IMG/VR virus record: IMGVR_UViG_2695420471_000001
Reading direction: 5' to 3' (one strand)
Source of the DNA: a virus
Taxonomy: Duplodnaviria > Heunggongvirae > Uroviricota > Caudoviricetes
Length of the DNA: 26,356 nt
Shown piece after piece: positions 19-19,517 of the stretch. The first letter of the stretch is position 1. The number at the start of each line of letters is the position of its first letter. A program made the translations under genes and the position numbers. The notes beneath the pieces are model-generated. The model was not told the origin of the DNA, did no database searches, and worked only from the letters and a program-made list of their open reading frames with translations.

Positions 19-345
19 TCACTGGCGCTGACACTTCATCACCTCCGGACGTAAATCACCATCCTTTGGTGCATTCAGAAACGCGTTCAGTGTCCCCGGT
101 GCATCAGTCGGTGCCACATCAATATCCCCGACACGGGTTGGCTGCCAGCCGTTACAGTGAAGCGCAACCTCGTAATACCCCGGCTCAGCCTCAATCACAT
201 AAGCACCGTTATTGTCCGTCACGCAAGTGGCAACAACGTGTGCCACAACGGTCGGACTGGTTCTTCTGGCCCGCAGTTCAATCGCACAATTTACGACAGG
301 TTTACCCGCCCCATCTTTCAGTACACCTGAAATCTTTACTGCCAT
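19..345 (-). CDS. stf: Side tail fiber (Stf)-like N-terminal domain protein, short form or truncated
   Basis: Translation from the internal Met reads MAVKISGVLKDGAGKPV..., matching the lambda Stf N-terminus (MAVKISGVLKDGTGKPVQNC...). ATG at 343-345 lies 63 nt downstream of the lom stop, as in lambda. The ORF ends at TGA (19-21) after about 109 aa, where lambda Stf continues; the window edge prevents seeing what follows. Confidence 0.55.
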   Translation of the reverse strand: MAVKISGVLKDGAGKPVVNCAIELRARRTSPTVVAHVVATCVTDNNGAYVIEAEPGYYEVALHCNGWQPTRVGDIDVAPTDAPGTLNAFLNAPKDGDLRPEVMKCQRQ

Positions 346-408
346 ATTCACCCCACAAAAAGCCCGCCTGAACCAGCGGGCAGTCATAACACTGTGTTAC
401 CTGGCTAA

Positions 409-1008
409 TCAGAACTTATAACCGACACCCACGATGAAACCGTCAGTGCGCCAGTCACCACTGCCGGAACCTTCATAAGCAAGGTCAATGGCCACGGATT
501 CGGTCGGGTTAAACTGCACGCCAGCCCCCCACGCCAGAGACGTGTTGCTGTGGCGACCGCCATCACTTCCGGTCAGCACATCGTGCGTTTTCCCCTTGTT
601 GTCAGTTACGCGGAGATAATCCCCGGAGAAGGTCGACACACGGCTGTAAGCCACGCCCGCCATCGCATACGCGCTGAACCATTCATTCACGCGCACAGAC
701 GGCCCCGCCATCACGCTGAACCAGCGGTTACGCACGGAATCCTCATGCCAGCGGGTATCGCTGTAATGCGTTTTTTGCTCATCTTCAGCGTTGGCATAAC
801 TGAATGACGTAATCAGCCCCAGCGTGTCCGTAAACTCATAACGGTATTTCACGTTAATGCCCTTCAGGTCATCGCTGCCTGGCATATCAGTATGGGTCTG
901 AAGATACCCGGCGCTCAGCGTGGACTGATGTTCAGACGCCCATGCAGGCGCACCGGATACGGCCAGACAGATGGCTGCGGACAAAATGGCTGCACAAACT
1001 TTACGCAT
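409..1008 (-). CDS. lom: Lom outer membrane protein (Ail/Lom/OmpX family beta-barrel)
   Basis: 199-aa ORF with signal peptide (MRKVCAAILSAAICLAVSGAPAWA) and near-identity to lambda Lom throughout, ending ...DGFIVGVGYKF. Sits immediately downstream of J as in lambda. Confidence 0.92.
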   Translation of the reverse strand: MRKVCAAILSAAICLAVSGAPAWASEHQSTLSAGYLQTHTDMPGSDDLKGINVKYRYEFTDTLGLITSFSYANAEDEQKTHYSDTRWHEDSVRNRWFSVMAGPSVRVNEWFSAYAMAGVAYSRVSTFSGDYLRVTDNKGKTHDVLTGSDGGRHSNTSLAWGAGVQFNPTESVAIDLAYEGSGSGDWRTDGFIVGVGYKF

Positions 1009-1075: not shown

Positions 1076-3412
1076 TCAGCTAATCGTGATGCCTGCAGTG
1101 GCTTTCTTCATCACCACAACCAGCAAATCGCTGATACTTGCTGTGGGATACCAGCCATTTACCAGCCATGCCGATACAGAAAACTCCAGCGTCATGTGAC
1201 CGTGACCGGCAGGCATATCAATAACACCCGTATATATCAGCGTATTATCCAGGGTCGTTCGGTTATAAATTTCAGCACCGTTTTTCTTCACTATCAGGCG
1301 GCATGACGAATAAATATTGTTATTCTTCCGCTCATGTTTAGCACCGCGAAACGCCACCGCGGGAATAACAATTTGCCGATCAAACGGCTGATCGTCATAA
1401 ACCCTGACGGTAATGGTCCCTGATGGCCACCTCTCCGGTGCCCGGGAGTCCCGTGGGAAAGGTTTGCCCACTGTTTTAACGAGATCGCCTTCAATCTGGT
1501 TCGCGGACAATTTTCCCAGAACCCGACAGTTCTTATTAATCGTGACGTTGTTGAGCGTCCCGGAGTTCGCGTTCACGTTACCGCTGATATCGGCATTTTT
1601 CGCCGTCAGCCGTCCGCCAGGTGTCAGGGAAAATGCCGGAGGATTACCGCCGCTGGTAATGGTCGGAGCCGTCAGGCATTTCAGGAACACGTCGTTCATG
1701 AATATCTGATCGCCCTGACCAACAAACATCGGCTTTGTGTTGCCATTCGCAGGATTAATCATCGCAATCCTGTCTGCCGCCAGCAGCACCTGACTCTGCA
1801 TTCCTGCTGGCGTATTCTCAATACCGGCACCGATACCCGCAATATAAAGGCGTCCGTCCTTCATCTGTTGCAGCTTCACAGCCCACATGCTGTTCAGGTT
1901 ATTATTTGTATCAACCTGAACTTTCTGTATCTGCTGGATTGCAGCACTCTGATTTTCCAGTTTTTTATTGACGGTTTGCGTGATTTCATTGCTGACATTC
2001 GTAATGGACGTCCTGATTTCAGTCAGGTCCGGCGCAAGCTGACCGTTATCAATCTGCGTCCACAACTCCTTGCCGAGATGCGTTTTATTGATCAACCCTT
2101 TATAAAAATTCAGATAACCTTCTGCATCATCGCTCGCCCGACCGATGGCCTCCACAAATGCCGATTTGCCAACGGTGTTCACACTGCGAACGTAAAAATA
2201 ATAATCATGGCCCGGCCTGATATTGATACTGGCGGCTATCCAGTACAGCGCCGTGCCAAGATAGCGGGCGCTGGTTTCAACCTGCCTGATATCCGCAATC
2301 CGCTTTTCCGAAAACCAGAACTCAAACTGCACCGTCGGGTCATATACAGCCAGTTTCGGGACCGCCGTTATCTGAAAATACCCCGGTATCAGTTCAATAG
2401 TGACAGGCGCTGCCGGTGCCGCAATCCGGAACGATACCGACGCCGGATCGCCCTGCTGCCCCCACGCATTTACTGCCCGGACTGTCAGCCTGTAGTTCCC
2501 CAGCGCCAGTTGTGTGAAGCGGTAAGTGGTTTCCGTCGTCCGGGCCGTGCTGACCAGCCGCTCACTGCCGTCATCCGCTGTTACGGTCAGACGGAGCAGG
2601 AAGCTCACGCCCTTCACCACCTTCGGCGTGTCCCAGCGCGCCAGCACCTGATATTCCCCGCTGTCTGCGGTGACTTCGGCAGTCAGGTGCTGCACCGCTG
2701 GCGGCGTGACACCATTCACCGTGCCGCTCTGGTCGCCGTCAAAGTGCGCCCCGTTATCCACGATGGCTTCTTTTTCCGGCACATGCTGCACGGCGGTGAT
2801 GGCATACGTGCCGTCGTCGTTCTCACGGATACTCACGCAGCGGAACAATCGCTGGTGCAGCGTCGGCAGCTTCAGCCCCCACACGCTGTATTCAGCAACA
2901 CCGTCAGGAACACGGCTCACTTTTACCTTCACGCCGTCGGTGACGGACTGGACCTCCACGCTGACCGGATTCCCCTGCCCGTCAACCAGGCTTATCAGCG
3001 TGGTGCCGGAGGATGGCAGCGTGATTTCACGGTCGAGCGTCAGCGTCCGGGTCTGGCTGTTCACCGCCAGCACGCGCCCGCCGGTGCGGATACCGGCATA
3101 GTCATCATCGCAGATTTCAATGACATCGCCCGGTACATGACGAAGCCCTTCAGCACCCACGCTGAAATCCACGGTCTGCGTCTCCAGCAGTTCCGTTTTA
3201 ATCAGCCACAGCCCGGCGCGGTGTGCCTGCCCCCGGCTGGTACAGCCAAAGGCATCCATCTTCGTGACGTTACGACCGTAACGGACAATGGCCTGCGTAT
3301 CCTCCACAAGCTCTGTCGCCGTCTCCCAGCCGTTATCCGGGTCAATCCAGTTCACCTCAACGGCATTATGGCGGTCTTTCAGGGCGCTGAAACTGTAGCG
3401 GAACGGCGCGCC
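1076..3412 (-). CDS. J: Host specificity protein J (central tail fiber), C-terminal about 778 codons; 5' end runs into an N-gap
   Basis: In-frame continuation of J-like sequence ([22 protein letters not shown]..., repeated fibronectin-like region, ...[35 protein letters not shown]...). Stop at 1076-1078. The N-terminal two thirds are near-identical to lambda J; the last 250 aa or so are recognisably homologous but divergent. Confidence 0.85.
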
Positions 3413-4361
3413 NNNNNNNNNNNGCCCGGACTGTCAGACTGTAATTCCCCAGCGCCAGCTGCCTGAAGCGGTATGTGGTTTCCGTCGTCCTGGCTGTGCT
3501 GACCAGCCGCTCACTGCCGTCGTCCGCTGCCACGGTCAGGCGAAGCAGGAAGCTCACACCCTTCACCACCTTCGGCGTGTCCCATCGCGCCAGCACCTGA
3601 TATTCCCCGCTGTCTGCGGTGACTTCGGCGGTCAGATGCTGCACCGCTGGCGGCGTGACACCATTCACCGTGCCGCGCCGGTCACCGTCAAAGTGTGCCC
3701 CGTTATCCACGATGGCCTCTTTTTCCGGCACATGCTGCACGGCGGTGATGGCATACGTGCCGTCGTCGTTCTCACGGATACTCACGCAGCGGAACAGACG
3801 CTGGCGCAGCGTCGGCAGCTTCAGCCCCCACACGCTGTATTCTGCAACGCCGTCAGGAACCCGGCTCACTTTCACCTTCACGCCGTCGGTGACGGACTGG
3901 ACCTCCACGCTGACCGGATTGCCACTTCCGTCAACCAGGCTTATCAGCGTGGTACCGGAGGACGGCAGCGTGATTTCACGGTCGAGCGTCAGCGTCCGGG
4001 TCTGGCTGTTCACCGCCAGTACGCGACCACCGGTGCTGATACCGGCATAATCATCATCGCAGATTTCAATGACATCACCCGGTACATGGCGAAGCCCTTC
4101 TGCGCCCACGCTGAAGTCCACGGTCTGCGTTTCCAGCAGTTCCGTTTTAATCAGCCACAGCCCGGCTCGGTGTGCCTGCCCCCGGCTGGTACAGCCAAAG
4201 GCATCCATCTTCGTGACATTACGACCGTAACGGGCAATGGCCTGCGTATCCTCCACAAGCTCTGTCGCCGTCTCCCAGCCGTTATCTGGGTCAATCCAGT
4301 TCACCTCAACGGCATTATGGCGGTCCTTCAGGGCGCTGAAGCTGTAGCGGAACGGCGCGCC
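2475..4361. repeat. Two near-identical copies (about 938 bp each) of an internal J segment, flanking the 11-N gap
   Basis: 2475-3412 aligns base-for-base with 3424-4361 apart from scattered SNPs (for example AIVRYGRNV vs AIARYGRNV, DGQGNP vs [18 protein letters not shown] vs RFRQLALGNYSL in translation). Confidence 0.85.
3413..3423. other. Run of 11 N (assembly gap or masked bases)
   Basis: Literal n characters in the sequence; flanked on both sides by J sequence from different positions of the gene. Confidence 0.95.
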
Positions 4362-5504
4362 ATCGTCCGGCATCACCACATTACTGCGGTTATAGGTCCA
4401 CACCTTATCCGACGGTCGGTCCTGCACGAACGTCAGCATCTGTCCGTTCCATACCGGCATACAGCGCATCGCCGAGCAGAAATCACTGAGAACATCCCAC
4501 GCCTTACGCTGTGTGGTCAGGTAAGAGTTACAGGTGATGCGCGGCTCCGTGCCGCCAAATCCGTCCGTCACTGACTGGTCGCAGTACTGGCCGATGACAT
4601 ACAGCGCCCATTTGTCCACATCTGCCGCACCAAGACGTTTCCCCATGCCGTAGCGCGGATGAGTGAGCATGTCCCACAGACACCAGGCCATGTTGTTGCT
4701 GTATGCTGGCTTAAGCGTTCCGTCCCAGATACCGCTGTATTGCCGCGTCTGCGGGTTATAGTTCGACGGCACCTGCAGAATGCGCCCGCGAAGATGATAA
4801 TTGCGACTCACCTGCTGGTTACCGAACTGCTCTGAATCCACCTGCACGCCGACCAGCGCCGTGTTCGGGTAGCACTGTTTCACATCGATGATTTCGGTGT
4901 ATGACGACCAGAGCGTTTTGTTCTGCAGCTGGTCTGTGGTGCTGTCCGGTGTCATCCTGCGCATCCGGATATTAAACGGGCGCGGCGGCAGGTTACCCAC
5001 CACCACCGAGGCCAGATACTGCGAAGTGGTTTTGCCCTTAATGGTGATGTCTTTTTCCGTCACCCAGCCACCGTTACGCTGTATCTGAACCAGCAGGCGG
5101 ACTTCCGACGGATTCCGGTCACCCTTTGAGGTGGTTTCCACCAGTGCCTGCACACCGAAGGTCAGGCGCAGACGGTCGATGTTTGCCGACGTGATGGTCC
5201 GGGTGATCGGCGTGTCATATTTCACTTCCGTACCCAGCACCGTCTCGGAGCCGGAGGATTCAAAACCCTCCGGCGGTGTCTGCTCCTGCTCACCTGCACG
5301 GAACACCACCGTAACACCGGAAAAGTTTGTCTTCCCCTCGCTGTCCAGGACCGGCGTACCGTTCAGCAGCACGCTTTTTAATCCATCCACCGGACCGTCA
5401 ACCGGCCCTTCGCTGATGGCATCAATCACACTCAGCAACTGCGTGGATTTCAGGTTGTCCTTCGCTTCGCGCGGGGTATGCCCCTTACTGCTGCCTTTAC
5501 CCAT
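3424..5504 (-). CDS. J: Host specificity protein J, N-terminal about 693 codons (copy B); 3' end runs into the N-gap
   Basis: ATG at 5502-5504; begins MGKGSSKGHTPREAKDNLKSTQLLSVIDAISEGPV..., near-identical to the lambda J N-terminus. The apparent continuation to a stop at 3366 passes through the N-run and is not real. Confidence 0.85.
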
Positions 5505-5564
5505 TCCTCACGCTCCATAAACGACAAAACCGCCCGCAGGCGGTTTCACATAAAACATTTTGCA

Positions 5565-6206
5565 TCAGCGACCAATCACCACAACCTGACCACCATCCCC
5601 TTCGTCTGCCGTGCTGATCTCCTGAGAAACCACACGTGACCCCACGCGCATTTCACCGTACAGAACGGGCAGAACATTGCCCTGGGCAACCATGTTATCC
5701 AGTGACGAGAAATACGTGTTCTGCTTACCGTTATCCGTTGTCTGTGTACGGGGAGTTCTGGCTTTCGGTGCCAGCATCTGTGCAACACCGCCAAGCGTCA
5801 TACTGGCACCGAGAGAAAACAGCAGATTACTCGCCATAATTCCTACCCCCGGCATCCATATAGCAACCGCCATAACAGCCGCCCCCAGCACCGCCTGAAA
5901 CACACCGCCACTTTTAGCTCCCACCAGACGCGGTACTATGTGGATCACTGCACCATTTGCCAGCGGCTCATTAAGACGGGCAGACAATTCGGTTTCACCT
6001 GCATCACGCCCGGCAATGCGCACCTGATACCAGCCGTCACTCAGTTTCTGACGAAACGCCGGGAGCTGTGTGGCCAGTGCCCGGATGGCTTCAGCCCCCG
6101 TTTTCACACGAAGGTCGATGCGGCGACCAAATCGTTGTAAATCCCCGTAAAGGCAGATGCGCGCCATGCCCGGTGACGCCAGAGGGAGTGTGTGCGTCGC
6201 TGCCAT
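5565..6206 (-). CDS. I: Tail assembly protein I (copy 1, variant with shorter hydrophobic central segment)
   Basis: 213 aa; MAATHTLPLASPGMARICLYGDLQRFGRRIDLRVKTGAEAIRALATQLPAFRQKLSDGWYQVRIAG... matches lambda I. Overlaps the 3' end of K by about 100 nt and lies 60 nt upstream of J, exactly as in lambda. Confidence 0.85.
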   Translation of the reverse strand: MAATHTLPLASPGMARICLYGDLQRFGRRIDLRVKTGAEAIRALATQLPAFRQKLSDGWYQVRIAGRDAGETELSARLNEPLANGAVIHIVPRLVGAKSGGVFQAVLGAAVMAVAIWMPGVGIMASNLLFSLGASMTLGGVAQMLAPKARTPRTQTTDNGKQNTYFSSLDNMVAQGNVLPVLYGEMRVGSRVVSQEISTADEGDGGQVVVIGR

Positions 6207-6847
6207 TTGTCGGTATACCTCTCTCGTTTGCTCAGTTGTTCAGGAATATGGTGCAGCAGCTCGCCGTCACCACAGTAAATGGCGGCATGATTCGGCACCG
6301 ATGAACCAAAACAGCACAGCAGCACATCGCCCGGCTGTGCCTCTGTCAGTGCGACACGGTAAAAACCCGTCACCTCCATATTGTCAAGATAGAGATTCTG
6401 ACCGTTACGCCACCAGTCATCCCCGCGATGAAAATCCGGCATCTCAATCCCTGCCAGATGATAAGCATCCCGGAACAGCGTGTAACAGTCCGTCACCCCG
6501 TGCTCAAAGCGCCGCCCGGTAAGATGTGGCACACAGCGGAACTTGTGAATCGCCCCCCGGCAGACCAGCCACCACGGCAAATCACTCTGCACCTGCAGCC
6601 GCCGGTCAGCCTCACTCAGCCAGGGCAGACCACCGGGATGACTGTGGACCAGCGCCACAATCTCACCCTGCATTTGTGCCCGCAGCCAGTCCTCCGGAGC
6701 CATCCGGAACCGTTCCTCCGGCTCACCGGAGATATTCTCGCTGGGAAGATACCTGTCTCCCTCCGGCGTTCTTACCACGAAGCCACACGACTCCGCTGGC
6801 GCACATCGCCGGGCGTGCGCCAGAATCGCTGATTCTGTCTGTGTCAT
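6104..6847 (-). CDS. K: Tail tip assembly protein K (copy 1; JAMM/MPN plus NlpC/P60 domains)
   Basis: Start set at MTQTESAILAHARRCAPAESCGFVV (ATG 6845-6847), by homology to copy 2; the longer 335-aa track ORF is an upstream extension into L. JAMM motif HSHPGGLPWLSEAD is present. Confidence 0.85.
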   Translation of the reverse strand: MTQTESAILAHARRCAPAESCGFVVRTPEGDRYLPSENISGEPEERFRMAPEDWLRAQMQGEIVALVHSHPGGLPWLSEADRRLQVQSDLPWWLVCRGAIHKFRCVPHLTGRRFEHGVTDCYTLFRDAYHLAGIEMPDFHRGDDWWRNGQNLYLDNMEVTGFYRVALTEAQPGDVLLCCFGSSVPNHAAIYCGDGELLHHIPEQLSKRERYTDKWQRRTHSLWRHRAWRASAFTGIYNDLVAASTFV

Positions 6848-6851
6848 GGAT

Positions 6852-7550
6852 TTACTGAGAAAGTTTATTGATGGAAAGGAAACCGCCGAAATTACCGGTA
6901 TTGTTGCGCAACTCACACCCGCGCATACACTTGCTGCATTTGTCCTTCCGGATATCCGTCGTTGGTTTGTCGAACTCGTCAGCCACTGCCCTGCCCGTGT
7001 AACCACACTCATCAGAACGGTAAGTCCACATACAGGTATTCGCCAGCATGATACGCCCCGGGAAAACCGCGCCATCCGTCTCCGTTGGTGTGGCCAGCAC
7101 AAAAGAGGCACTGACCGCGCTCAGTTCGCTGCACTGCTCGATGCGCCAGCGGCTGATCACCTCCTGTTCCGGATCGGCGTCGCTGTTTCCGTTGACGAAG
7201 TTCACCGCATCCAGAAAACGGGCGTAAACCTTACGCCTGACCACCGTTCCGCCGACCAGACTCTGCAGGTCTTCCGCCATCCCGGTGACCATTCCGTGCA
7301 GGTTAGAAACCGTCAGTGTCGGACGGGCAGCACTGCCCTTGCCGTTCAGTTCAAATCCCGTCCCCTGAATGGGGTATGCCTGATACTGCCGCCCCTGCCA
7401 GGTAACCGGCTCACCTTTTTCGTTCTGCTCATTACAGAAAAAATAACGTTCTCCACCGACCTCTGTCAGATCGATTTCCCAGAGCACCACCTGGGCTGAC
7501 TGAGTGAGGCGTGTCGTCTCATGATGTGTTTCCTGTGGAATATCCTGCAT
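6852..7550 (-). CDS. L: Minor tail protein L (copy 1)
   Basis: 232 aa, same length as lambda L; about 90% identical by eye to copy 2. C-terminal cysteine cluster (DKCSKCMRGC) consistent with the Fe-S site described for gpL. Confidence 0.88.
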   Translation of the reverse strand: MQDIPQETHHETTRLTQSAQVVLWEIDLTEVGGERYFFCNEQNEKGEPVTWQGRQYQAYPIQGTGFELNGKGSAARPTLTVSNLHGMVTGMAEDLQSLVGGTVVRRKVYARFLDAVNFVNGNSDADPEQEVISRWRIEQCSELSAVSASFVLATPTETDGAVFPGRIMLANTCMWTYRSDECGYTGRAVADEFDKPTTDIRKDKCSKCMRGCELRNNTGNFGGFLSINKLSQ

Positions 7551-7559
7551 CAGAGCCTC

Positions 7560-7889
7560 CTATGCCACGACCTGTTCAAAATCTGCCGTTATGGTTACCC
7601 ACAACGCCCCCACGCTTGCCGACCATTTACGACAAACCACCCTGATCGGCTTCCAGTCATAAGGTGGCGTCCACTGAAATGCGCGGACGCCACCGTGCCG
7701 TTCCAGAAAGGCTTTTAAAAATGGGTGTTCACCTTTACGAACACGTATCTTCACGCTGTAAGTCGACAACTGGTTATTCAGTCCCGCCGCACGACGCTGT
7801 TCATAACCATCGCCCAGCTTCACTGTCACCACTTTCGGCTCTGATACCACATTCATATCCGGGCGCACTTTCCAGTGAAACGTCTCCAT
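7560..7889 (-). CDS. M: Minor tail protein M (copy 1, divergent allele)
   Basis: 109 aa, same length and position as lambda M but only about 50% identical by eye to copy 2 (METFHWKVRPDMNVVSEP... vs MKTFRWKVKPGMDVASAP...). Confidence 0.8.
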   Translation of the reverse strand: METFHWKVRPDMNVVSEPKVVTVKLGDGYEQRRAAGLNNQLSTYSVKIRVRKGEHPFLKAFLERHGGVRAFQWTPPYDWKPIRVVCRKWSASVGALWVTITADFEQVVA

Positions 7890-8228
7890 TACCGGTATGC
7901 TCCACTTAACCGGCCACCATCACGGGCCTGCTGTTGCATAAAGTCCGCGGCCGCTTTTTTCCCGAGGTCATAAACCACCTTCAGGGCAGCCGGACCTATC
8001 TGCCCGTTCGTGCCATCGTTATTGATCTCAATGTTGTACTGCGGGGCAAACATCACCATGCCTGAACCACCAGTATCCGCCACACCCCCCAGCTTACCAT
8101 CAGCACCGCGACGCAGTGGCAGAATGGCTTCAGGTCCCGCTTCCCCCATCACACCCGCGCCTTTTGCAAAAGCAAAAAACGTCGGACGGTTAACCACCGT
8201 GCCACTGTAGCGACTCAAATCAGCAGAC
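7889..8228 (-). pseudogene. H: Tape measure protein H, 3' fragment only (C-terminal 110 codons or so), truncated at an IS junction
   Basis: Translation ...YNIEINNDGTNGQIGPAALKVVYDLGKKAAADFMQQQARDGGRLSGAYR aligns with the lambda H C-terminus (...NHVVIQNDGTNGLPGPQMMKAVYDMARKGARDEIQTQMRDGGLFSGGGR). Its stop overlaps the M start. Upstream the reading frame runs into IS-like sequence and hits a stop; no H N-terminus is present. Confidence 0.7.
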
Positions 8229-8353
8229 TGAGGTAGCCTGAGTTTAACGGACACTCCTTCCTGAAATAGAATGGCATCAGAAGGAGCTAATAATGAGCAG
8301 AAAAACCCAACGTTACTCTAAAGAGTTCAAAGCCGAAGCTGTCAGAACGGTTC
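8229..8353 (+). mobile_element. IS3-family insertion sequence, left end only (putative inverted repeat plus first 20 codons of orfA); possibly IS600-like
   Basis: Good RBS (aaggag) then ATG at 8293 encoding MSRKTQRYSKEFKAEAVRTV, a typical IS3-family OrfA N-terminus (HTH region). Upstream sequence begins tgaggtagcctgagtttaacgg, consistent with a TG-initiated terminal inverted repeat. The element is cut off by NNN at 8354. The left boundary is approximate (about +/-10 bp). Confidence 0.6.
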
Positions 8354-8356
8354 NNN
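8354..8356. other. Run of 3 N at the IS/J junction
   Basis: Literal nnn; IS orfA sequence on one side, internal J sequence (minus strand) on the other. Confidence 0.95.
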
Positions 8357-9749
8357 TCCAGCAGTTCCGTTTTAATCAGCCACAGCCCGGCGCGGTGTGC
8401 CTGCCCCCGGCTGGTACAGCCAAAGGCATCCATCTTCGTGACGTTACGACCGTAACGGACAATGGCCTGCGTATCCTCCACAAGCTCTGTCGCCGTCTCC
8501 CAGCCGTTATCCGGGTCAATCCAGTTCACCTCAACGGCATTATGGCGGTCTTTCAGGGCGCTGAAACTGTAGCGGAACGGCGCGCCATCATCCGGCATCA
8601 CCACATTACTGCGGTTATAGGCCCACACCTTATCCGACTGTCGGTCCTGCACGAACGTCAGCGTCTGCCCGTTCCATACCGGCATACAGCGCATCGCCGA
8701 GCAGAAATCACTGAGCACATCCCACGCCTTGCGCTGTGTGGTCAGCCAGGCATTACAGGTGATGCGCGGCTCCGTGCTGCCAAAGCCGTCCGGCACCGAC
8801 TGGTCACAGTACTGGCCGATGACATACAGCGCCCATTTATCCACATCTGCCGCACCAAGACGTTTCCCCATGCCATAGCGCGGATGGGTCAGCATATCCC
8901 ACAGACACCAGGCCATGTTGTTGCTGTATGCCGGTTTTAACGTTCCGTCCCAGATACCGCTGTATTGCCGCGTCTGCGGNNNNNNNNNNNNNNNNNNNNN
9001 TTATAGTTCGACGGCACCTGCAGAATGCGCCCGCGAAGATGATAATTGCGACTCACCTGCTGGTTACCGAACTGCTCTGAATCCACCTGCACGCCGACCA
9101 GCGCCGTGTTCGGGTAGCACTGTTTCACATCGATGATTTCGGTGTATGACGACCAGAGCGTTTTGTTCTGCAGCTGGTCTGTGGTGCTGTCCGGTGTCAT
9201 CCTGCGCATCCGGATATTAAACGGGCGCGGCGGCAGGTTACCCACCACCACCGAGGCCAGATACTGCGAAGTGGTTTTGCCCTTAATGGTGATGTCTTTT
9301 TCCGTCACCCAGCCACCGTTACGCTGTATCTGAACCAGCAGGCGAACTTCAGACGGATTCCTGTCTCCCTTTGAGGTGGTTTCCACCAGTGCCTGTACAC
9401 CGAAGGTAAAACGCAGTCGGTCAATGTTTGCCGACGTGATGGTCCGGGTGATCGGCGTGTCATATTTCACTTCCGTACCCAGCACCGTCTCGGAGCCGGA
9501 GGATTCAAATCCCTCCGGCGGTGACTGCTCCTGCTCACCTGCCCGGAACACCACCGTGACGCCGGAGATGTTGGTATTCCCCTCACTGTCCAGCACCGGC
9601 GTACTGTTCAGCAGCACGCTTTTTAATCCATCCACCGGACCTTCAACCGGCCCTTCGCTGATGGCATCGATCACACTCAGCAGCTGCGTGGACTTCAGGT
9701 TGTCCTTCGCTTCGCGCGGGGTATGCCCCTTACTGCTGCCTTTACCCAT
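8357..9749 (-). CDS. J: Host specificity protein J, N-terminal about 465 codons (copy C), interrupted by a 21-N run at 8980-9000 and ending at the IS junction
   Basis: ATG at 9747-9749; MGKGSSKGHTPREAKDNLKSTQLL... It follows I (copy 2) after the same 60-nt spacer as lambda. About 98% identical to copy B with scattered substitutions (VEGPVDG vs VDGPVDG, NSTPVLDSEGNTNISG vs NGTPVLDSEGKTNFSG). The frame is broken by the N-run, which replaces 1 nt with 21 N. Confidence 0.85.
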
Positions 9750-9809: not shown

Positions 9810-10481
9810 TCAGCGACCAATCACCACAACCTGACCACCGTCCCCTTCGTCTGCCGTGCTGATCTCCTGAGATACCACACGTGACCCCACGCGCATTTCA
9901 CCATACAGAACAGGCATAACATTGCCCTGGGCAACCATGTTATCCAGTGAGGAGAAATAGGTGTTCTGCTTACCGTTATCCGTTGTCTGTGTGCGGGGAG
10001 TTCTGGCTTTCGGTGCCAGCATCTGAGCCACACCGCCGAGCACCATACTGGCACCGAGAGAAAACAGAATGCCGGTCATACCACCGGCACCAATGGCAGC
10101 CCCCCATGCTGCAAGGGTGGCTCCGGCGGTAAAGAATGATCCGGCAATGGCGGCTGCTCCCAGGACAATCTGGAATACACCACCTGACTTGGCCCCGGCG
10201 ACTCTGGGAACAATATGAATCACAGCGCCGTCAGGCAGAGCCTCATGTAACTGTGCCGTTAATCCGGACGTGCTAACATCCTGCCCGGCAATACGCACCT
10301 GATACCAGCCGTCGCTCAGCTTCTGACGAAACGCAGGGAGCTGTGTGGCCATCGCCCGGATGGCTTCGGCACCCGTTTTCACACGAAGGTCGATGCGGCG
10401 GCCAAATCGTTGCAAATCCCCGTAAAGGCAGATGCGTGCCATGCCCGGTGACGCCAGAGGGAGTGTGTGCGTCGCTGCCAT
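9810..10481 (-). CDS. I: Tail assembly protein I (copy 2, lambda-type)
   Basis: 223 aa, the lambda I length, with near-identity to lambda I including the Gly/Ala-rich hydrophobic segment. Confidence 0.93.
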   Translation of the reverse strand: MAATHTLPLASPGMARICLYGDLQRFGRRIDLRVKTGAEAIRAMATQLPAFRQKLSDGWYQVRIAGQDVSTSGLTAQLHEALPDGAVIHIVPRVAGAKSGGVFQIVLGAAAIAGSFFTAGATLAAWGAAIGAGGMTGILFSLGASMVLGGVAQMLAPKARTPRTQTTDNGKQNTYFSSLDNMVAQGNVMPVLYGEMRVGSRVVSQEISTADEGDGGQVVVIGR

Positions 10482-11122
10482 TTGTCGGTATACCTCTCTC
10501 GTTTGCTCAGTTGTTCAGGAATATGGTGCAGCAGCTCGCCGTCACCACAGTAAATGGCGGCATGATTCGGCACCGATGAACCAAAACAGCACAGCAGCAC
10601 ATCGCCCGGCTGCGCCGCTGACAACGGCACCTGATACAGCCCTGTGGCCTCCAGATTATCCAGATAGAGATTCTGACCGTGACGCCACCAGTCATCCTCA
10701 CGATGAAAATCCGGCATCTCAATCCCCGCCAGATGGTAAGCATCCCGGAACAGCGTGTAACAGTCCGTCACCCCGTGCTCAAAGCGCCGCCCGGTAAGAT
10801 GTGGCACACAGCGGAACTTGTGAATCGCCCCCCGGCAGACCAGCCACCACGGCAAATCACTCTGCACCTGCAGCCGCCGGTCGGCCTCACTCAGCCAGGG
10901 CAGACCACCGGGGTGGCTGTGGACCAGTGCCACAATCTCACCCTGCATCTCTGCCTGCAGCCAGTCTTCCGGCGACATACGGAAATACGCCTCCGGCTCA
11001 CCGGAGATATTCACGCAGGGGAAATATCTTTCCCCCTCCGGCGTTCTTACCACGAAGCCGCACGACTCCGCTGGAGCACATCGCCGGGCGTGCGCCAGAA
11101 TCGCTGATTCTGTCTCTGTCAT
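10379..11122 (-). CDS. K: Tail tip assembly protein K (copy 2; JAMM/MPN plus NlpC/P60)
   Basis: 247-aa ORF starting 6 nt after the L stop (MTETESAILAHARRCAPAESCGFVV...). An internal Met at codon 49 (MSPEDWLQAEMQ...) would give a 199-aa product. Contains the JAMM motif HSHPGGLPWLSEAD and a Cys/His pair (DCYTLF...HAAIY) typical of NlpC/P60. Confidence 0.9.
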   Translation of the reverse strand: MTETESAILAHARRCAPAESCGFVVRTPEGERYFPCVNISGEPEAYFRMSPEDWLQAEMQGEIVALVHSHPGGLPWLSEADRRLQVQSDLPWWLVCRGAIHKFRCVPHLTGRRFEHGVTDCYTLFRDAYHLAGIEMPDFHREDDWWRHGQNLYLDNLEATGLYQVPLSAAQPGDVLLCCFGSSVPNHAAIYCGDGELLHHIPEQLSKRERYTDKWQRRTHSLWRHRAWHASAFTGICNDLAAASTFV

Positions 11123-11127
11123 GGGAT

Positions 11128-11826
11128 TTACTGCGAAAGTTTGTTAATGGAAAGGAAGCCGCCAAAGTTGCCGACGTTATTGCGAAACTTACAGCCACTC
11201 AGGCATTTGCTGCATTTATCCTTCGTGATGTCGGACGTTGGCTGGTCATATTCATCCGCGACCGCCGGACCGTGATAACCGCACTCATCGCCGCGATAGG
11301 TCCAGGTGCAGGTGTTGGCCAGCATGATACGTCCCGGAAAAACAGCGCCATCTGTTTCCGTCGGCGTGGACAGTACAAAAGAGGCACTCACCGCGCTCAG
11401 TTCGCTGCACTGCTCAATGCGCCAGCGGCTGATCACCTCCTGCTCCGGATCGGCGTCACTGTTTCCGTTGACGAAGTTCACCGCATCCAGAAAACGGGCG
11501 TAAACCTTACGCCGGACCACCGTTCCGCCGACCAGACTCTGTAGATCTTCCGCCATCCCGGTGACCATACCGTACAGGTTAGAAACCATCAGCGTGGGGC
11601 GCGTACTGGTGCCTTTGCCATTCAGTTCAAAACCACTCCCCTGAATGGGATACGGCTGATACTGTCGCCCCTGCCAGGTGACCGGCTCACCTTTTTCGTT
11701 CTGCTCATTACAGAAAAAATAACGTTCTCCACCGACCTCTGTCAGATCGATTTCCCAGAGCACCACGCTGGCCGACTGCTCCGCACGGGTGCATTCATTC
11801 AGTGTTTCCTGCCGGATATCCTGCAT
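11128..11826 (-). CDS. L: Minor tail protein L (copy 2)
   Basis: 232 aa, identical in length and near-identical in sequence to lambda L. Confidence 0.93.
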   Translation of the reverse strand: MQDIRQETLNECTRAEQSASVVLWEIDLTEVGGERYFFCNEQNEKGEPVTWQGRQYQPYPIQGSGFELNGKGTSTRPTLMVSNLYGMVTGMAEDLQSLVGGTVVRRKVYARFLDAVNFVNGNSDADPEQEVISRWRIEQCSELSAVSASFVLSTPTETDGAVFPGRIMLANTCTWTYRGDECGYHGPAVADEYDQPTSDITKDKCSKCLSGCKFRNNVGNFGGFLSINKLSQ

Positions 11827-12155
11827 CAGTTCACCACCTGTTCAAACTCTGCGCTGAACTCAACACGCAGCATACTGACCCGCGACGACCATTTTGCGCA
11901 GGTCACCTTTATCTGCCGCCACTCATAAGGCGGCGTCCACAGAAAGGCTTTCCAGCCCCCGTGCTCTTCCAGAAACGACTCCAGTACCATGGCCTCCTCA
12001 CGGGGGACAGAAAGCGTCACGCTGTACGTTTTCAGGTTGGCATTCAGCCCGGCAGGCGCTCGCTGGGAATAGCCATCACCAAAGCGCACCTTTCTTACAG
12101 AAGGGGCCGAAGCCACATCCATACCGGGTTTCACTTTCCAGCGGAAGGTTTTCAT
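11826..12155 (-). CDS. M: Minor tail protein M (copy 2)
   Basis: 109 aa; start overlaps the H stop (ATGA-type overlap), as in lambda. Confidence 0.93.
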   Translation of the reverse strand: MKTFRWKVKPGMDVASAPSVRKVRFGDGYSQRAPAGLNANLKTYSVTLSVPREEAMVLESFLEEHGGWKAFLWTPPYEWRQIKVTCAKWSSRVSMLRVEFSAEFEQVVN

Positions 12156-14713
12156 CGTCCACCTCCGGAGAACAGGCCACCATCACGCATCTGTGTCTGA
12201 ATTTCATCACGGGCACCCTTGCGGGCCATGTCATACACGGCCTTCATCATCTGTGGACCTGGCAGACCATTCGTACCGTCGTTCTGAATCACCACGTGAT
12301 TGTTCTGATTAAAATTAATGCCTTCAGCCCGCCGCATCTGCGCCGGACTTCCGGCACCGCCCACATAACCACCTTCCGCATAGCCGCGCATCAGCCGGTA
12401 GAGATTCCCCACGCCAATCCGGCTGGTTGCCTCCTTCGTGAAGACAAATTCACCACGGTGAACAATCCCCGCTGGCTCATATTTGCCGCCGGTTCCCGTA
12501 AATCCCCCGGTTGCAAAATGGAATTTCACCGCAGCGGCCTGAATGGCTGTACCACCTGACGCGGATGCGCCGCCACCAACAGCCCCGCCAATGGCGCTGC
12601 CGATACTCCCGACAATCCCCACCATTGCCTGCTTAAGCAGAATTTCTGTCATCATGGACAGCACGGAGCGGGTGAAGCTGCGCCAGTTCTGTTCACTGCC
12701 GGTCAGCATCGCCGCCATATTCTGTGCAATACCATCAAAGGTCTGCGTGGCTGCACTTTTAACCTGTGACATACTGTCCGTGGCGCTCTCTTCCCACTCA
12801 CTCCAGCCGGACTTCAGGCCTGCCATCCAGCTCCCGCGAAGCTGGTCTTCAGCCGCCCAGGTCTTTTTCTGCTCTGACATGACGTTATTCAGCGCCAGAG
12901 GATTATCGCCATACTGTTCCTTCAGGCGCTGTTCCGTGGCTTCCCGCGCTGCCTGCCGGTCAGTCAGCCCCCGGTTTTTCGCATCAATGGCTGCCCGTTT
13001 TGCCCGTTGCTGCTGTGCGAATTTATCCGCCTGCTGCGCCAGCGCATTCAGGTGCTCCTGATACGTAACCTTGTCACCAAGTGCAGCCAGCTGGCGTTTG
13101 TACTCCAGCGTCTCGTCTTTATGCGCCAGCAGGGATTTCTCCTGTGCGGACAGCTGGCGACGTTGTGCCGCCTCCTCCAGTACCGCGAACTGACTTTCTG
13201 CCTTCCACAAATCCCGGCGCTGCTGGCTGATTTTCTCATTCGCTCCGGCATGCTTCTCCAGCGTCCGGAGTTCTGCCTGAAGCGTCAGCAGGGCCGCATG
13301 AGCACTGTCTTCCTGACGATCGCCCGCATACACCTTCACGCCGGACTGTTTCGGCTTTTTCAGCGTCGCTTCATAATCCTTTTTCGCCGCCGCCATCAGC
13401 GTGTTGTAATCTGCCTGCAGGATTTTTCCGTCTTTCAGTGCCTTGTTCAGTTCTTCCTGACGGGCGGTATATTTCTCCAGCGGCGTCTGCAGCCGTTCGT
13501 AAGCCTTCTGCGCCTCTTCGGTATATTTCAGCCGTGACGCTTCGGTATCGCTCTGCTGCTGCGCATTTTTGTCCTGTTGACGCTGTTGATCTACCCTCTT
13601 TTGGGCTGCATCCCGCTCCAGGCGTTTTTTTTCACGATCATCCCAGTAACGCGCCCGTGCTTCATCGTTAACGAAATAATCATCCTTGCGCAGATTCCAG
13701 ATGTCGTCTGCTTTCTTAAACGCAGCCTCTGCCTTAATCAGCATCTCCTGCGCGGTATCAGGACGACCAATATCCAGCACCGCATCCCACATGGATTTGA
13801 ATGCACGTGCAGTCCTGTCTGCCCAGGTCTCCAGCGTGCCCATGTTCTCTTTCAGGCGGCGGGTCTGGTCATCAAACCCTTTCGTTGCGGCCTCGTTCGC
13901 CGCCTGCAATGCCCCGGCTTCATCGCCGGAACGCTGCAACTGAGCAACATACGCAATCTGCTCCGCCGTCACGTTATGGAACTGGCGTGCCATCGCCGTC
14001 AGCCCCGACGTCGGGTCTGTGGTCAGCTTCCCGAAGGCTTCAGCGACCTTGTCCACCTCCACGCCGGATGCATAGGAGAAACGCGCCACACTCTGGCTGA
14101 TGGACGCAATCTGAGCCTCACCGCTTACCCCCGCCTTAACCAGTGCGCTGAGTGACTCGCTGGTCTGGTTAAACGTCAGCCCTGCCGCCTGCCCGGCTCT
14201 GGACAGGACCAGCATACGATCTGCCGTCAGTCCCGCCTGATTACCGGAAAGGACCAGCGTTTTGTTGAAATCGGACAGGGTTGAGTTGCCCTGATACCAG
14301 GCATACGCCAGCGCACCGGTCGCCACCGCCAGCGAGGTGGCCCCCACCATCGGCAGGGTGATCGCGCCGGCAAGCCCCCTGAACATGGGGATCATCCCGC
14401 CGAAGGAGTCCTTAACCTGACCACCCTGTTGCAGCAGGATCAGCCAGGGATTCTGCCCCCCTGCAAGCTGCGTGGCCACGTCGGTGAACTGTGCAGGCAG
14501 CATACGCATGGCGGCTTTATACTGCCCGACGGAAATCCCCGCTTTCTGTGCAGCCAGCGCCTGTCGGCTCAGCGACTGTTCAACGACTGCCGCTGTTTTT
14601 TTCGCATCACTTTCCGTACCGGAAAAATGACGCCTGACTCTGGCCATCTGCTCGTCAAATCTGGCCGCATCCAGACTCAAATCAACGACCAGATCGCCTA
14701 CCGGTTCAGCCAT
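12152..14713 (-). CDS. H: Tail tape measure protein H
   Basis: 853 aa, the lambda H length; long coiled-coil-rich middle region; C-terminus ...VIQNDGTNGLPGPQMMKAVYDMARKGARDEIQTQMRDGGLFSGGGR. Start overlaps the end of the T frame. Confidence 0.95.
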   Translation of the reverse strand: MAEPVGDLVVDLSLDAARFDEQMARVRRHFSGTESDAKKTAAVVEQSLSRQALAAQKAGISVGQYKAAMRMLPAQFTDVATQLAGGQNPWLILLQQGGQVKDSFGGMIPMFRGLAGAITLPMVGATSLAVATGALAYAWYQGNSTLSDFNKTLVLSGNQAGLTADRMLVLSRAGQAAGLTFNQTSESLSALVKAGVSGEAQIASISQSVARFSYASGVEVDKVAEAFGKLTTDPTSGLTAMARQFHNVTAEQIAYVAQLQRSGDEAGALQAANEAATKGFDDQTRRLKENMGTLETWADRTARAFKSMWDAVLDIGRPDTAQEMLIKAEAAFKKADDIWNLRKDDYFVNDEARARYWDDREKKRLERDAAQKRVDQQRQQDKNAQQQSDTEASRLKYTEEAQKAYERLQTPLEKYTARQEELNKALKDGKILQADYNTLMAAAKKDYEATLKKPKQSGVKVYAGDRQEDSAHAALLTLQAELRTLEKHAGANEKISQQRRDLWKAESQFAVLEEAAQRRQLSAQEKSLLAHKDETLEYKRQLAALGDKVTYQEHLNALAQQADKFAQQQRAKRAAIDAKNRGLTDRQAAREATEQRLKEQYGDNPLALNNVMSEQKKTWAAEDQLRGSWMAGLKSGWSEWEESATDSMSQVKSAATQTFDGIAQNMAAMLTGSEQNWRSFTRSVLSMMTEILLKQAMVGIVGSIGSAIGGAVGGGASASGGTAIQAAAVKFHFATGGFTGTGGKYEPAGIVHRGEFVFTKEATSRIGVGNLYRLMRGYAEGGYVGGAGSPAQMRRAEGINFNQNNHVVIQNDGTNGLPGPQMMKAVYDMARKGARDEIQTQMRDGGLFSGGGR

Positions 14714-15544
14714 ACCGGACTCCTCCTGCGATCCCTTCTGATACTGTCATCAGCATTACGTCATCCTCCGTCATGTCCGCCACATCCGGGGAAGCGGGGA
14801 TAACTTCATTCCCGTCCGGGCCAAAGCGGACACCTCCGGCAAGCCCTGCCGCTTTCTGCATCAGCACATCATCTTCAGGCTCTTCGTCAGCCTCGCGCCG
14901 GTTCAGCAGACTGAAATCCAGCGGATGCATCTCCGGATCGCTGAAAAACAGGCTGAGCACGGTGTACGTCAGCCCGGAAAAGTGCATATCCAGCAGAACA
15001 TCATGAAAATAATGGGTACTGTAAAAGCGGTGCCAGTCGGCATACTCCGTGGATGACATCCCGGCAAGCATGGCGCGCCAGTCGGGTCGCCCCATCTCAC
15101 GCGCCAGTTTCAGGGCAAAACTCAGCTCACCGTCGAACACTTTCCCGCAGAAACAGGCTCTGCAGGCCCGGCGTCCTCTGCCTGTTCAGGAGCATCATTC
15201 ACCACAAACTCATACATACCGGACAGCCGGTACACCACGTTTTCAGCATGAGAAATTGCCTCTGTGGGCCAGGTGGTAAGCACTTCCTGCTCAATCTGTT
15301 TAACGGCTTCATTCATGGACGGCATCTGCGTCTTCTTCGGATGGTTATGCCACAGGGACATCGCAACCACAAAAGCGCCGGTTCTGATGGCGTCTTCCAC
15401 AGTAAACTTCCGGTTGCTGTCTGACTCCGCCTGTTCTGCCTGCCGTTTCATCAGGTCGAGATGCTCAATACGCTGCAGGGCTGACAGTTCAGAAAGCGTG
15501 ACGGTCACACCGTTATGTTCAAATGATTCGGTTTTCAGGAACAT
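14706..15544 (-). CDS. T: Tail assembly chaperone G-T fusion, made by programmed -1 ribosomal frameshift
   Basis: The T reading frame (14706-15140) has no start of its own and lies -1 relative to G. The slippery heptamer G GGA AAG sits in the G frame at codons ...AGK, 6 codons before the G stop. After the slip the reading is ...GKVFDGELSFALKLAREMG..., matching lambda gpGT. Confidence 0.85.
15122..15544 (-). CDS. G: Tail assembly chaperone G
   Basis: 140 aa, MFLKTESFEHNGVTVTLSELSALQRIEHL...; same length as lambda G; stop TGA at 15122-15124. Confidence 0.93.
   Translation of the reverse strand: MFLKTESFEHNGVTVTLSELSALQRIEHLDLMKRQAEQAESDSNRKFTVEDAIRTGAFVVAMSLWHNHPKKTQMPSMNEAVKQIEQEVLTTWPTEAISHAENVVYRLSGMYEFVVNDAPEQAEDAGPAEPVSAGKCSTVS
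15140..15146 (-). promoter_or_regulatory. -1 frameshift slippery heptanucleotide GGGAAAG (G to G-T)
   Basis: Plus-strand ctttccc at 15140-15146 is the reverse complement of GGGAAAG, positioned in the G frame as G GGA AAG (same motif and position as in lambda). Confidence 0.8.
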
Positions 15545-15559
15545 CGCTGACTCTCCGGA

Positions 15560-16300
15560 TTAACTGGCGGTGACGTTGATTTCTGCAACCGCAGCAAACT
15601 CACCATTACCAGATACGACCGGAATGTTGACCTTGCCTGCAGCAACACCTTTCACGGTGATGGTCATACCACTGACCGACACGGTGGCTTTTGTTTTATC
15701 CGCAGACACCGCACGGAAGCTCTTGTCGGTTGCGCCATCCGGCTGGAATGCCACGGTCAGCGTGGTGCTCTGCCCTTTCACTACGGAAGCACTGGCGGGT
15801 GTCACCGTCATGCCGGTCGTCGCCGTCACCGTGCTGCGATCTTCTGCCATCGACGGACGTCCCACATTGGTGACCTTCACCGTGCGGGTAATCACCTCCT
15901 TCGCCGTCACCGCCTTACCGATACTGCTGACCCAGCCACGGAACACATCGACCGTGCCGTTCGGGAAGCGGATTTTATAGGCACGGGTATCACCTTCATT
16001 AAACCACGCCAGCAGCGCCTGCTGCCCCTGCTCTCCGGGCATCCACGCCAGCGTGAAGCTGGTATCTCCGGCAGATTTCTGCCCCTGCCCGGTCGCAGTC
16101 CAGTCTGCATCTTCATCATCGAGATAGCTGTCGTCATAGGACTCAGCGGTCAGTTCGCCGGGCGTCAGGTCTTTAACTTTTGCCAGACGCGACCAGTCAA
16201 CGTCTGAAAGCGGGTTCGCATAAGGGTCACCGCTCCCCTTATAAACCCACAGGGTGGTCCCGGCACCTTTCACCGGCATTGTAGGATTTGGTACAGGCAT
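15560..16300 (-). CDS. V: Major tail tube protein V (with C-terminal Ig-like domain)
   Basis: 246 aa from ATG at 16298-16300 ([36 protein letters not shown]...). The track ORF starts 10 codons upstream at a weaker start. C-terminal [23 protein letters not shown]... is Big_2-like. Confidence 0.93.
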
Positions 16301-16307
16301 AGCGTCC

Positions 16308-16703
16308 TCACATTTCATAGATAATGACATAAGTCAGATCGGCTGAACTCCACAGGCCCGCATCATCGTCGCGCCGGTAGTCATAGCCGCTGGCCACCAT
16401 ACTGGTGATCAAATCTGACAGTGCCGGGATATCGCTCATCACAGGATAAATCCGGGACTCCATCCACGAATCCAGCTCTGAATCCGGCACCTGAGCAGGC
16501 AGGAAAACTTCAATATGCAGCTCCGCCTGCCAGGTATCGCTGTCCAGCTCTTCGCCCGTGTATTCAGCGCCGGTGAGATAAACGGCAATTGCCGGAAAAT
16601 CTTCCTCATCAAAAACAGCGGGGCGACCATCAAAAAGCGTCGCCCCGGTGTCATGCTTCTCCAGTGCATCCAGTACGGCTGCACGGAGTTCAGTATGTTT
16701 CAT
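16308..16703 (-). CDS. U: Tail terminator protein U
   Basis: 131 aa, [50 protein letters not shown]..., near-identical to lambda U. Confidence 0.93.
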
Positions 16704-17278
16704 CGCTTTATTACCATTCTCAGTTGATGCTGCAGCGCATAGCCCAGCTCTTTCGGAAGACGTTCACGCCGTATCCGTTCAATATTCTGTTTAAACGCCG
16801 TGGTCAGCGGCACCGCCATCGGGATTTTCACCACATCAATGGGGTAACGGTTTTTCCCGGCCACACGCTGCATAACATGCCACCGGCCGTTTTTCAGTTG
16901 CTGAATAAACGCGCCGGGAATACGACGGTTACCCACCACAAGCACGCTGCCGCCACCTTTCAGGGATGAACGCTGCCCCTTTTTATGACGCCTGCGGCGG
17001 GACAGGACAACCCGCGCATTACCCAGCTTGATTACGGGCAAATCCCCCCGGTTAACTTTGATTCTGGCCTGCGGATTTTTGACCGTGGCCCTTTTCAGCC
17101 TGGCCCTTTCCTTTACCAGTTTCCGGCGTACCTTTGTCTCACGGGCAACCTGTGACGCAGACTGCGATATCGCGGATGAAGCAACGCGGTTAATGGCCAT
17201 TGCGGCGGCACCGGGCACCGCCGTTTTGCTGATACGGCTGAGGTTTTCAACGGCCTGCTCAAGACCTTTTATGGCCAT
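16700..17278 (-). CDS. Z: Tail completion protein Z
   Basis: 192 aa, MAIKGLEQAVENLSRISKTAVPGAAAMAINRVASSAISQ...; 4-nt overlap with U. Confidence 0.93.
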   Translation of the reverse strand: MAIKGLEQAVENLSRISKTAVPGAAAMAINRVASSAISQSASQVARETKVRRKLVKERARLKRATVKNPQARIKVNRGDLPVIKLGNARVVLSRRRRHKKGQRSSLKGGGSVLVVGNRRIPGAFIQQLKNGRWHVMQRVAGKNRYPIDVVKIPMAVPLTTAFKQNIERIRRERLPKELGYALQHQLRMVIKR

Positions 17279-17289
17279 ACATCCCCCTT

Positions 17290-17643: not shown

Positions 17644-17654
17644 AGCGCCTCCCG

Positions 17655-18053: not shown

Positions 18054-18094
18054 GAACTCCTCCACAGAGAGAAAATGGCCCCGAAGGGCCATGA

Positions 18095-19120: not shown

Positions 19121-19130
19121 AAAAAAATCC

Positions 19131-19157
19131 CGTAAAAAAAGCCACACAGGCGGCCTT
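19131..19157 (-). terminator. Terminator-like hairpin with U-tract in the D-E spacer (possible attenuator)
   Basis: Minus strand reads aaaggccgcctgtgtggcttttttt: a 5-bp stem (with one G-U pair) and 4-nt loop followed by seven U, located between the D stop (19176) and the E start (19120). Confidence 0.4.
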
Positions 19158-19508: not shown

Positions 19509-19517
19509 AAACATCCC

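Follow-up and report, generated by a model that had tools for sequence, protein, structure and literature searches.

Two similar prophage tail regions, very probably stitched together in assembly, and the three partial J genes of a draft Shigella sonnei scaffold

The tail tip or host specificity protein of phage lambda, gpJ, is 1132 aa long. The gene order H-M-L-K-I-J-lom is common to lambda and the loci described here, as is the Pfam set FNIII-A_GpJ, Phage-tail_3, Ig_J, Phage_Tail_Tip and Ig_GpJ_C, but lambda gpJ is shorter than either of the two S. sonnei proteins, J1 (1165 aa) and J2 (1159 aa). In the stretch that we analysed, a window of 26,356 nucleotides, two of the partial J copies (A and B, below) match phrog_31, "central tail fiber J", with E = 0; the GpJ domain set is recorded on an identical 1159-aa protein, and J lies after M-L-K-I and before lom, the position of a lambda gpJ-type protein.

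Two S. sonnei J alleles, one of them on a remnant bracketed by IS600, are already present in closed genomes, where the pieces of the window map to two loci separated by about 684 kb. Both are in direct orientation in CP023645, at 1.26 Mb (prophage) and 1.95 Mb (remnant). The closed S. sonnei loci were found by exact-protein look-up of the two I proteins; L010 (CP023645.1, 1.261-1.282 Mb) served as the J1 prophage reference and L003 (CP023645.1, 1.945-1.966 Mb) as the J2 remnant reference. An intact lambda-like prophage carries J1, and the remnant bracketed by IS600, 'H-M-L-K-I-J2-lom, carries J2. With about 95% identity overall, the two genes have short identical stretches in common; the C-terminal part of J1 differs from that of J2, and is followed by a 1027-aa protein with no Pfam match and then by a tail-fibre assembly protein. 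Each allele occurs on about 1000 contigs, under the name S. sonnei host specificity protein J, and pure J1 or pure J2 is seen in other S. sonnei, both closed (L004-L006, L011) and draft (contig L012). Strain 75/02 has two tandem copies of the remnant, separated by IS600.

The window is the entire record CXAW01000054.1 (GCA_001254155.1), a short-read draft S. sonnei scaffold; a literature search for CP023645 and CXAW01000000 found no paper. It consists of four pieces (1-3412, 3424-8353, 8357-8979 and 9001-26356), and every junction between them is an N run. As the original prediction had it, three partial J copies lie on the minus strand: A at 1076-3412, B at 3424-5504 and C at 8357-9749. Copy A is the C-terminal part, ending in ITIS*, and copies B and C both start MGKGSSKGH. 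All three are broken by N runs, so that, as predicted, the record as written contains no intact J. The features are as follows.

19..387, minus strand: side tail fibre gene, N-terminal fragment, remnant locus (tail-fibre PHROG families, Pfam phage_tail_N; identical to L003)
409..1008, minus strand: lom (Ail/Lom outer-membrane protein), remnant locus (phrog_108, E = 8e-110; zero mismatches to L003)
1076..2420, minus strand: J2 C-terminal part, J nt 2136-3480 (J2 variable sites; zero mismatches to L003)
2421..2463, minus strand: 43-nt stretch identical in J1 and J2, site of the switch from J2 to J1 (mismatch positions against L010 and L003)
2464..3412, minus strand: internal J1 segment, J nt 1144-2092, the A copy of the 0.94-kb overlap (zero mismatches to L010)
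3413..3423, no strand: scaffold gap, 11 N; flanking sequences paralogous, not adjacent
3424..5504, minus strand: copy B, J2 nt 1-2081, the remnant allele (J2 base at 204 of 205 variable sites)
5565..8228, minus strand: remnant tail genes I, K, L and M, then the tape-measure gene H, of which the last ~120 codons remain (PHROG matches)
8229..8353, plus strand: IS600 left end, first 125 nt including the start of orfA (100% identity to annotated IS3-like IS600)
8354..8356, no strand: scaffold gap, 3 N, between IS600 and the J1 interior; adjacency unsupported
8357..8979, minus strand: J1 nt 751-1373, lower part of copy C (J1 base at 32 of 32 variable sites; matches L010)
8980..9000, no strand: scaffold gap, 21 N standing for one real base, J nt 750, a J1/J2 variable site
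9001..9749, minus strand: J1 nt 1-749 (comparison with the J1 and J2 references)
9810..25064, minus strand: morphogenesis genes of the intact lambda-like prophage (Pfam assignments)

The overlap of A (2475-3412) with B (3424-4361) aligns as predicted, far beyond chance (BLAST E = 0). The copies are more divergent than had been estimated: B and C, thought to be about 98% identical, are 95.8% identical (58 substitutions, 14 of 457 amino acids changed), and A and B, thought to differ by about 10 substitutions, differ by 50 together with two compensating 1-nt indels (94.7% identity, 9 amino-acid changes). The predicted end of copy C at the point matching A 3183 is borne out, since A 3183-3412 and 8357-8586 agree at 230 of 230 positions, an identical overlap between non-adjacent pieces. 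At all 674 J1/J2 variable-site calls over the four pieces, the base is the J1 or the J2 base of CP023645. Thus the expectation of two, possibly three, J alleles holds for at least two; a third was rejected as unnecessary, there being no variable site that requires one.

The piece that carries copy A is itself a chimera. Its bases 1-2463 match J2 and lom exactly and its bases 2421-3412 match J1 exactly; every mismatch to L010 lies at or below 2420, and every mismatch to L003 at or above 2464. The J2 base is present at 256 of 256 variable sites in 375-2420, lom included, and the J1 base at 56 of 56 in the upper 949 nt (2464-3412), a single clean switch. The J1 segment is wrongly attached to the J2 C-terminus and, because it stands beside its J2 paralogue at 3424-4361, it resembles a 0.94-kb duplication. 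The 759-aa ORF of piece A had no match in the protein look-up; the 270-aa ORF, with its X residues, did match the source record. A single intact J made of C and A had been proposed for the prophage. The two parts do combine into 3480 nt with an open ORF of 1159 aa, but the product is chimeric, and it fails as the J of the intact prophage because piece A is a J2/J1 chimera. The valid reconstruction is B + 11 nt + A(1076-2463), a genuine rebuildable gene whose translation is 100% identical to remnant J2; the intact J2 is obtained only by removing 2464-3423 and adding 11 nt.

Copy B belongs to the prophage remnant, as had been suggested. The piece at 3424-8353 is 99.86% identical to L003 (7 mismatches), the 'H::IS600 junction included, and window 1-2463 is 100% identical to the same remnant locus, which is also found in CP019689 and CP022455. 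In contrast to L003, the window has this locus split in two, with the 949-nt prophage J1 piece and 11 N between the halves. Remnant H is cut off by IS600, an IS3-family element, at the same junction in the closed S. sonnei loci L003-L006; the junction is in no genome of a complete E. coli collection that excludes Shigella. Identity to IS600 extends from the terminal TG onwards over 125 of 125 nt (positions 1-125 of the element), and only this left end lies in the window.

The remaining J pieces belong with the intact prophage. Window 8357-20481 is 99.7% identical to L010, and 2421-3412 is 100% identical to it. The genes in 9810-25064 are I, K, L, M, H (853 aa), T, G, V, U, Z, FII and FI, then E, D, an S49 protease, portal, terminase A and Nu1. 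Compared with L010, the window has none of the J1 C-terminal third, the 1027-aa protein or the tail-fibre assembly gene. It differs further in the 344 nt at 9001-9344, which are identical to 4756-5099 and carry 11 J2 bases and 1 J1 base. This stretch is consistent with a collapsed or mixed consensus, though true gene conversion could also account for it. The protein collection lacks a J1 that carries the two changes brought by the stretch, an absence that does not decide between the two readings.

The lengths of the N runs are uninformative about distance. Across the 21 N at 8980-9000 the alignment offset shifts by 20, and a 3844-nt query across this gap spans 3824 nt in complete genomes. A reading of the N runs as length-preserving masking was rejected, since 21 N replace 1 nt.

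The J layout of this record is very probably an ordinary assembly artefact. The three partial copies and the 0.94-kb "duplication" would have arisen by the stitching of two 95%-similar prophage tail regions across N runs. The sequences flanking the N runs overlap or do not fit the gap size, and the pieces map to different loci of the closed genomes, with one sharp switch inside a common stretch. Judged by other S. sonnei genomes, this strain would in reality have two lambda-like tail modules at separate chromosomal sites, the J1 prophage and the IS600-bracketed J2 remnant. The assembler would have built a chimeric contig that crosses from J2 to J1 inside the 43-nt common stretch, placed the remnant contig between two J1 pieces, and left short N runs of uninformative length. 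Greedy scaffolding and gap filling of the SSPACE/GapFiller type, with extension stalling where reads of the paralogues disagree, probably produced the misjoins. Of four independent piece ends, three stop right beside a J1/J2 variable site (J nt 750, 1374 and 2082; p≈7e-4), which fits greedy gap filling that stalls between paralogues. GapFiller is documented to stall at ambiguous overhang bases in repeats (PMC3446322), and both programs are greedy and capable of false joins (PMC5320598). Repeat gaps left by such tools likewise have short N runs of arbitrary length, false joins beside IS and prophage repeats, and edges that stop where paralogues differ; the use of the software here is undocumented and is suggested by the accession series only, CXAQ, CXBN and others being the S. 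sonnei drafts of Holt et al. 2012. The record's accession does not appear in the supplement of the pipeline paper. Two observations count against this account: the upper end of piece A lies 3 nt short of the next variable site and not next to it, and the 949-nt over-extension exceeds what a simple gap-filling model predicts.

It is conceivable, though improbable, that the cell itself made the switch, by crossover or gene conversion between J1 and J2 in the 43-nt stretch, so that the join of C and A is a true J1(N)-J2(C) hybrid and only the placement of the remnant between the J1 pieces is an artefact. In such a hybrid, with the N-terminal two-thirds from J1, parts of a dead remnant, the receptor-binding J2 C-terminus and lom, would retarget the host specificity of the intact phage. 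The open 1159-aa ORF speaks for it, as do the 230 identical nucleotides that link the upper end of A with the piece at 8357-8979. J genes also recombine in nature, which counts against an artefact: in loci L002 and L007-L009, from EIEC and E. coli, J1-like segments are combined with J2-like ones as mosaics, and L009 has a J2-like N-terminus and a J1-like C-terminus. However, a collection of about 15 billion proteins, which covers thousands of S. sonnei assemblies, contains neither the hybrid nor a cleaned form of it nor the reciprocal chimera, and all four hypothetical recombinant J proteins had zero matches there. The junction is likewise absent from complete E. coli genomes, where it reaches 98.1% at best over 12,178 J places in 5,426 genomes, from species-representative genome contigs and from 12 individual loci. 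With the loci in direct orientation and 684 kb from each other in CP023645, a simple crossover would delete 684 kb, and an identical stretch of 43 nt in 95%-similar DNA offers recombination a poor substrate. The scaffold is defective elsewhere too: gap sizes are false, one stretch mixes the alleles, and the join to IS600 is unsupported.

Still less probable is a real tandem brought about by IS600, in which a truncated J1 is followed at once by the remnant (prophage - J1' - IS600 - 'H M L K I J2 - lom) and the rest of the element hidden in the 3-N gap. S. sonnei is rich in IS600, the remnant is flanked by copies of it, and in strain 75/02 the remnant is doubled around an IS600. Against this, 8357 begins with no IS600 right-end sequence, although across the gap the element extends for 125 nt, and J1 continues unbroken through the equivalent point in 2464-3412. 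The J1 region of the locus with the prophage-type I is complete or uninterrupted in every S. sonnei examined, closed or draft, and no IS element is called in the 20 kb around that locus in the genomes examined; nor does a tandem explain the J1 segment on the J2 C-terminus. That one J gene underwent a genuine internal tandem duplication of 0.94 kb is barely credible. The segments 2475-3412 and 3424-4361 do appear as adjacent direct repeats, but the 50 sites at which they differ are exactly the J1/J2 differences, one copy being 100% J1 and the other J2, alleles whose loci a closed genome places 684 kb from each other. Between the two copies stand 11 N in place of a sequenced junction, and no such duplication occurs in any 1159- or 1165-aa J gene of the closed genomes. 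The original prediction's preference for an assembly product over a real internal duplication is supported.

With stitching as the preferred reading, the scaffold provides no evidence for duplication of J, for J pseudogenes or for a tandem arrangement of prophage and remnant. It is instead a clean worked example of how prophage paralogues that are roughly 95% identical lead to chimeric contigs, and to N runs of meaningless length, in short-read scaffolds. The source record annotates J fragments of 270, 209, 712 and 778 aa; in the public record, the five annotated fragments of J are artefacts. In a megablast of the whole region against complete E. coli genomes, the repeated query was folded onto single 7-kb loci.

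The window is the entire 26,356-bp record CXAW01000054.1 of GCA_001254155.1, and three runs of N (3413–3423, 11 N; 8354–8356, 3 N; 8980–9000, 21 N) cut it into the four pieces A, Y, Z, and W. Nearly all of its genes lie on the minus strand and together form a lambda-like morphogenesis module:

Pieces of the scaffold and the IS600 segment
1–3412, minus strand: piece A; remainder of a J gene, lom, beginning of side tail fibre gene
3424–8353, mostly minus strand: piece Y; IS600 left end, 'H, M, L, K, I, first 2081 nt of second J
8229–8353, plus strand: first 125 nt of IS600, 100% identical to annotated IS600
8357–8979, minus strand: piece Z; internal J piece
9001–26356, mostly minus strand: piece W; Nu1, terminase A, portal, S49 protease, D, E, FI, FII, Z, U, V, G, T, H, M, L, K, I, J start

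In piece W, H encodes 853 aa and J is represented by its first 749 nt; in piece Y, the truncated tape-measure gene ('H) directly adjoins IS600. A DUF1398-family ORF of 141 aa (25729–26154, plus strand) lies opposite, just past Nu1, at the scaffold's right end. Only one real base lies under the 21-N run: the offset shifts by 20 across it, and a 3844-nt query covers 3824 nt in complete genomes. The N runs are thus scaffold gaps of arbitrary length, and masking is ruled out as their origin.

Exact matches to the two I proteins were found in closed Shigella sonnei genomes. In CP023645, two modules lie in the same orientation ∼684 kb apart. The intact prophage at 1.26 Mb (L010) carries allele J1 (1165 aa), a 1027-aa protein without a Pfam hit, and a tail-fibre assembly protein; the remnant at 1.95 Mb (L003) reads IS600::'H-M-L-K-I-J2 (1159 aa)-lom, with IS600 copies on both sides. 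Piece Y is 99.86% identical to the remnant, IS600 junction included, and pieces Z and W are 99.7% identical to the intact prophage (compared over 8357–20481). The J proteins carry the database name S. sonnei host specificity protein J, and other S. sonnei genomes (closed, L004–L006 and L011; draft contig, L012) hold pure J1 or pure J2.

Alignment bears out the coordinates of the original prediction, in which A 2475–3412 pairs with Y 3424–4361; likewise, Y 4132–5504 pairs with Z/W 8357–9749, and A 3183–3412 is identical to Z 8357–8586 (230 of 230). Divergence had been underestimated. The two N-terminal copies, put at about 98% identity, are 95.8% identical (58 substitutions, 14 amino-acid changes), and the first of them differs from piece A by 50 substitutions rather than about 10, together with two 1-nt indels that compensate each other (9 amino-acid changes). 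No copy in the window is an intact J as written, just as had been said, and a suggested third allele is superfluous, since two account for all variable sites.

At those sites, piece A changes allele once, cleanly. Every mismatch to the remnant falls at or above 2464, and every mismatch to the intact prophage at or below 2420; piece A has the J1 base at 56 of 56 variable sites over 3392–2464, then the J2 base at 256 of 256 over 2420–375. The switch lies within 43 nt common to both genes (2421–2463). Judged by its bases, piece A is a J1/J2 chimera, and the supposed 0.94-kb duplication is thus J1 in A beside its J2 paralogue in Y. Piece Y, 11 nt of L003, and A 1076–2463 together encode a protein 100% identical to J2. 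These missing 11 nt (3 variable sites; compare 2464–2474), between the end of Y and the shared stretch, equal the 11-N gap in length, and removal of 2464–3412 would give the scaffold the correct length for J2; the match may be accidental or a relic of the original scaffold.

The single J that had been proposed from the second N-terminal copy and piece A is indeed an open ORF of 1159 aa, but it is J1 to about residue 716 and J2 beyond. Neither this protein, its cleaned J1–J2 version, nor the reciprocal J2–J1 chimera has a match among ∼15 billion proteins, a collection in which J1 and J2 each occur on ∼1000 contigs. The junction sequence was not found in the genome_contigs species-representative genomes or the 12 loci compared; across 12,178 J places in complete E. 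coli genomes, its closest match reaches 98.1%.

There are other signs of faulty assembly. W 9001–9344 is identical to Y 4756–5099, both with 11 J2 bases and one J1 base. The pattern resembles a single mixed or collapsed consensus placed in both positions; real gene conversion is possible. A J1 protein carrying the two amino-acid changes that follow from it was not found in the protein collection. Piece ends themselves adjoin J1/J2 variable sites at J nt 750 (the base hidden by the 21-N run), nt 1374 (just past the lower end of Z), and nt 2082 (just past the J end of Y). Three of four independent ends do so, which gives p≈7e-4 where variable sites have a density of 0.056.

Very probably, then, the arrangement in the window is not a real feature but an artefact of assembly between known S. 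sonnei prophage paralogues. A real J1–J2 hybrid made by recombination is possible in principle, and the J genes of EIEC/E. coli loci L002 and L007–L009 (at ∼10703–14200) are naturally mosaic, with both J1-like and J2-like segments; the 1165-aa J of L009 is J2-like at its N-terminus and J1-like at its C-terminus. These show that lambdoid J genes recombine in nature, but at other breakpoints than the window's. The hybrid is unlikely: it is unseen in any database searched, it needs a crossover inside 43 nt, and the direct orientation of the loci implies a 684-kb deletion. A real IS600-mediated tandem is a poor candidate. The Z–Y join sets J1 interior beside IS600 across 3 N, but no IS600 right-end sequence was found at 8357, and J1 runs uninterrupted in piece A through the equivalent point. 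Internal duplication within J is contradicted by the allele pattern and scarcely credible.

An assembly artefact could have arisen through greedy scaffolding and gap-filling. S. sonnei drafts of Holt et al. 2012 stand under neighbouring accession prefixes (CXAQ, CXBN, CXBR, and others), and from this series we suppose that the record passed through the high-throughput pipeline used for 299 S. sonnei assemblies (Velvet, SSPACE, and 120 GapFiller iterations), whose authors describe SSPACE and GapFiller as greedy, with false joins possible (PMC5320598). GapFiller grows gap edges base by base under a 0.7 majority rule and leaves repeat gaps open where alternatives have equal support (PMC3446322). 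Edges that stop where the paralogues differ, and a gap of 1 nt left unclosed, would fit this behaviour. The 949-nt over-extension exceeds what the simplest gap-filling model predicts.

The closest complete E. coli relative is L001 (CFSAN029787, 13038–16494), which counts as EIEC-like because ipaH is present. The annotation treats its J, lom, and tail fibre genes as pseudogenes with frameshifts; the many 1-nt gaps that appear when it is aligned to the window are suggestive of indel errors from long reads, not of real decay.

Nested or stacked IS600 copies flank the remnant in L003 (5645–7978 and 15653–18766), where a partial IS600 (nt 1–482) adjoins 'H and further copies follow. Past the tail-fibre fragment lies an IS600 that the window's left end misses by ∼400 nt. 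In CP019689 (S. sonnei 75/02; L004/L005, for example L004 7935–14849 and 17352 onwards), two tandem copies of the remnant lie 9417 nt apart, separated by IS600. A real duplication mediated by IS600 is one possibility and an artefact is another, because SSPACE scaffolding and gap closure were used for that genome. Downstream of J1, L010 14192–14777 is 88% identical to lom (window 532–1114) with no gene called, possibly a decayed lom. J2 itself (window 3424–5504 plus 1076–2463; L003 10703–14182) is an intact 1159-aa ORF, and at least 999 contigs encode the identical protein, in a prophage from which IS600 activity has removed the head genes and most of the tail genes; J2 may have stayed intact because S. 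sonnei is a clone of recent origin or because the gene is still in use.
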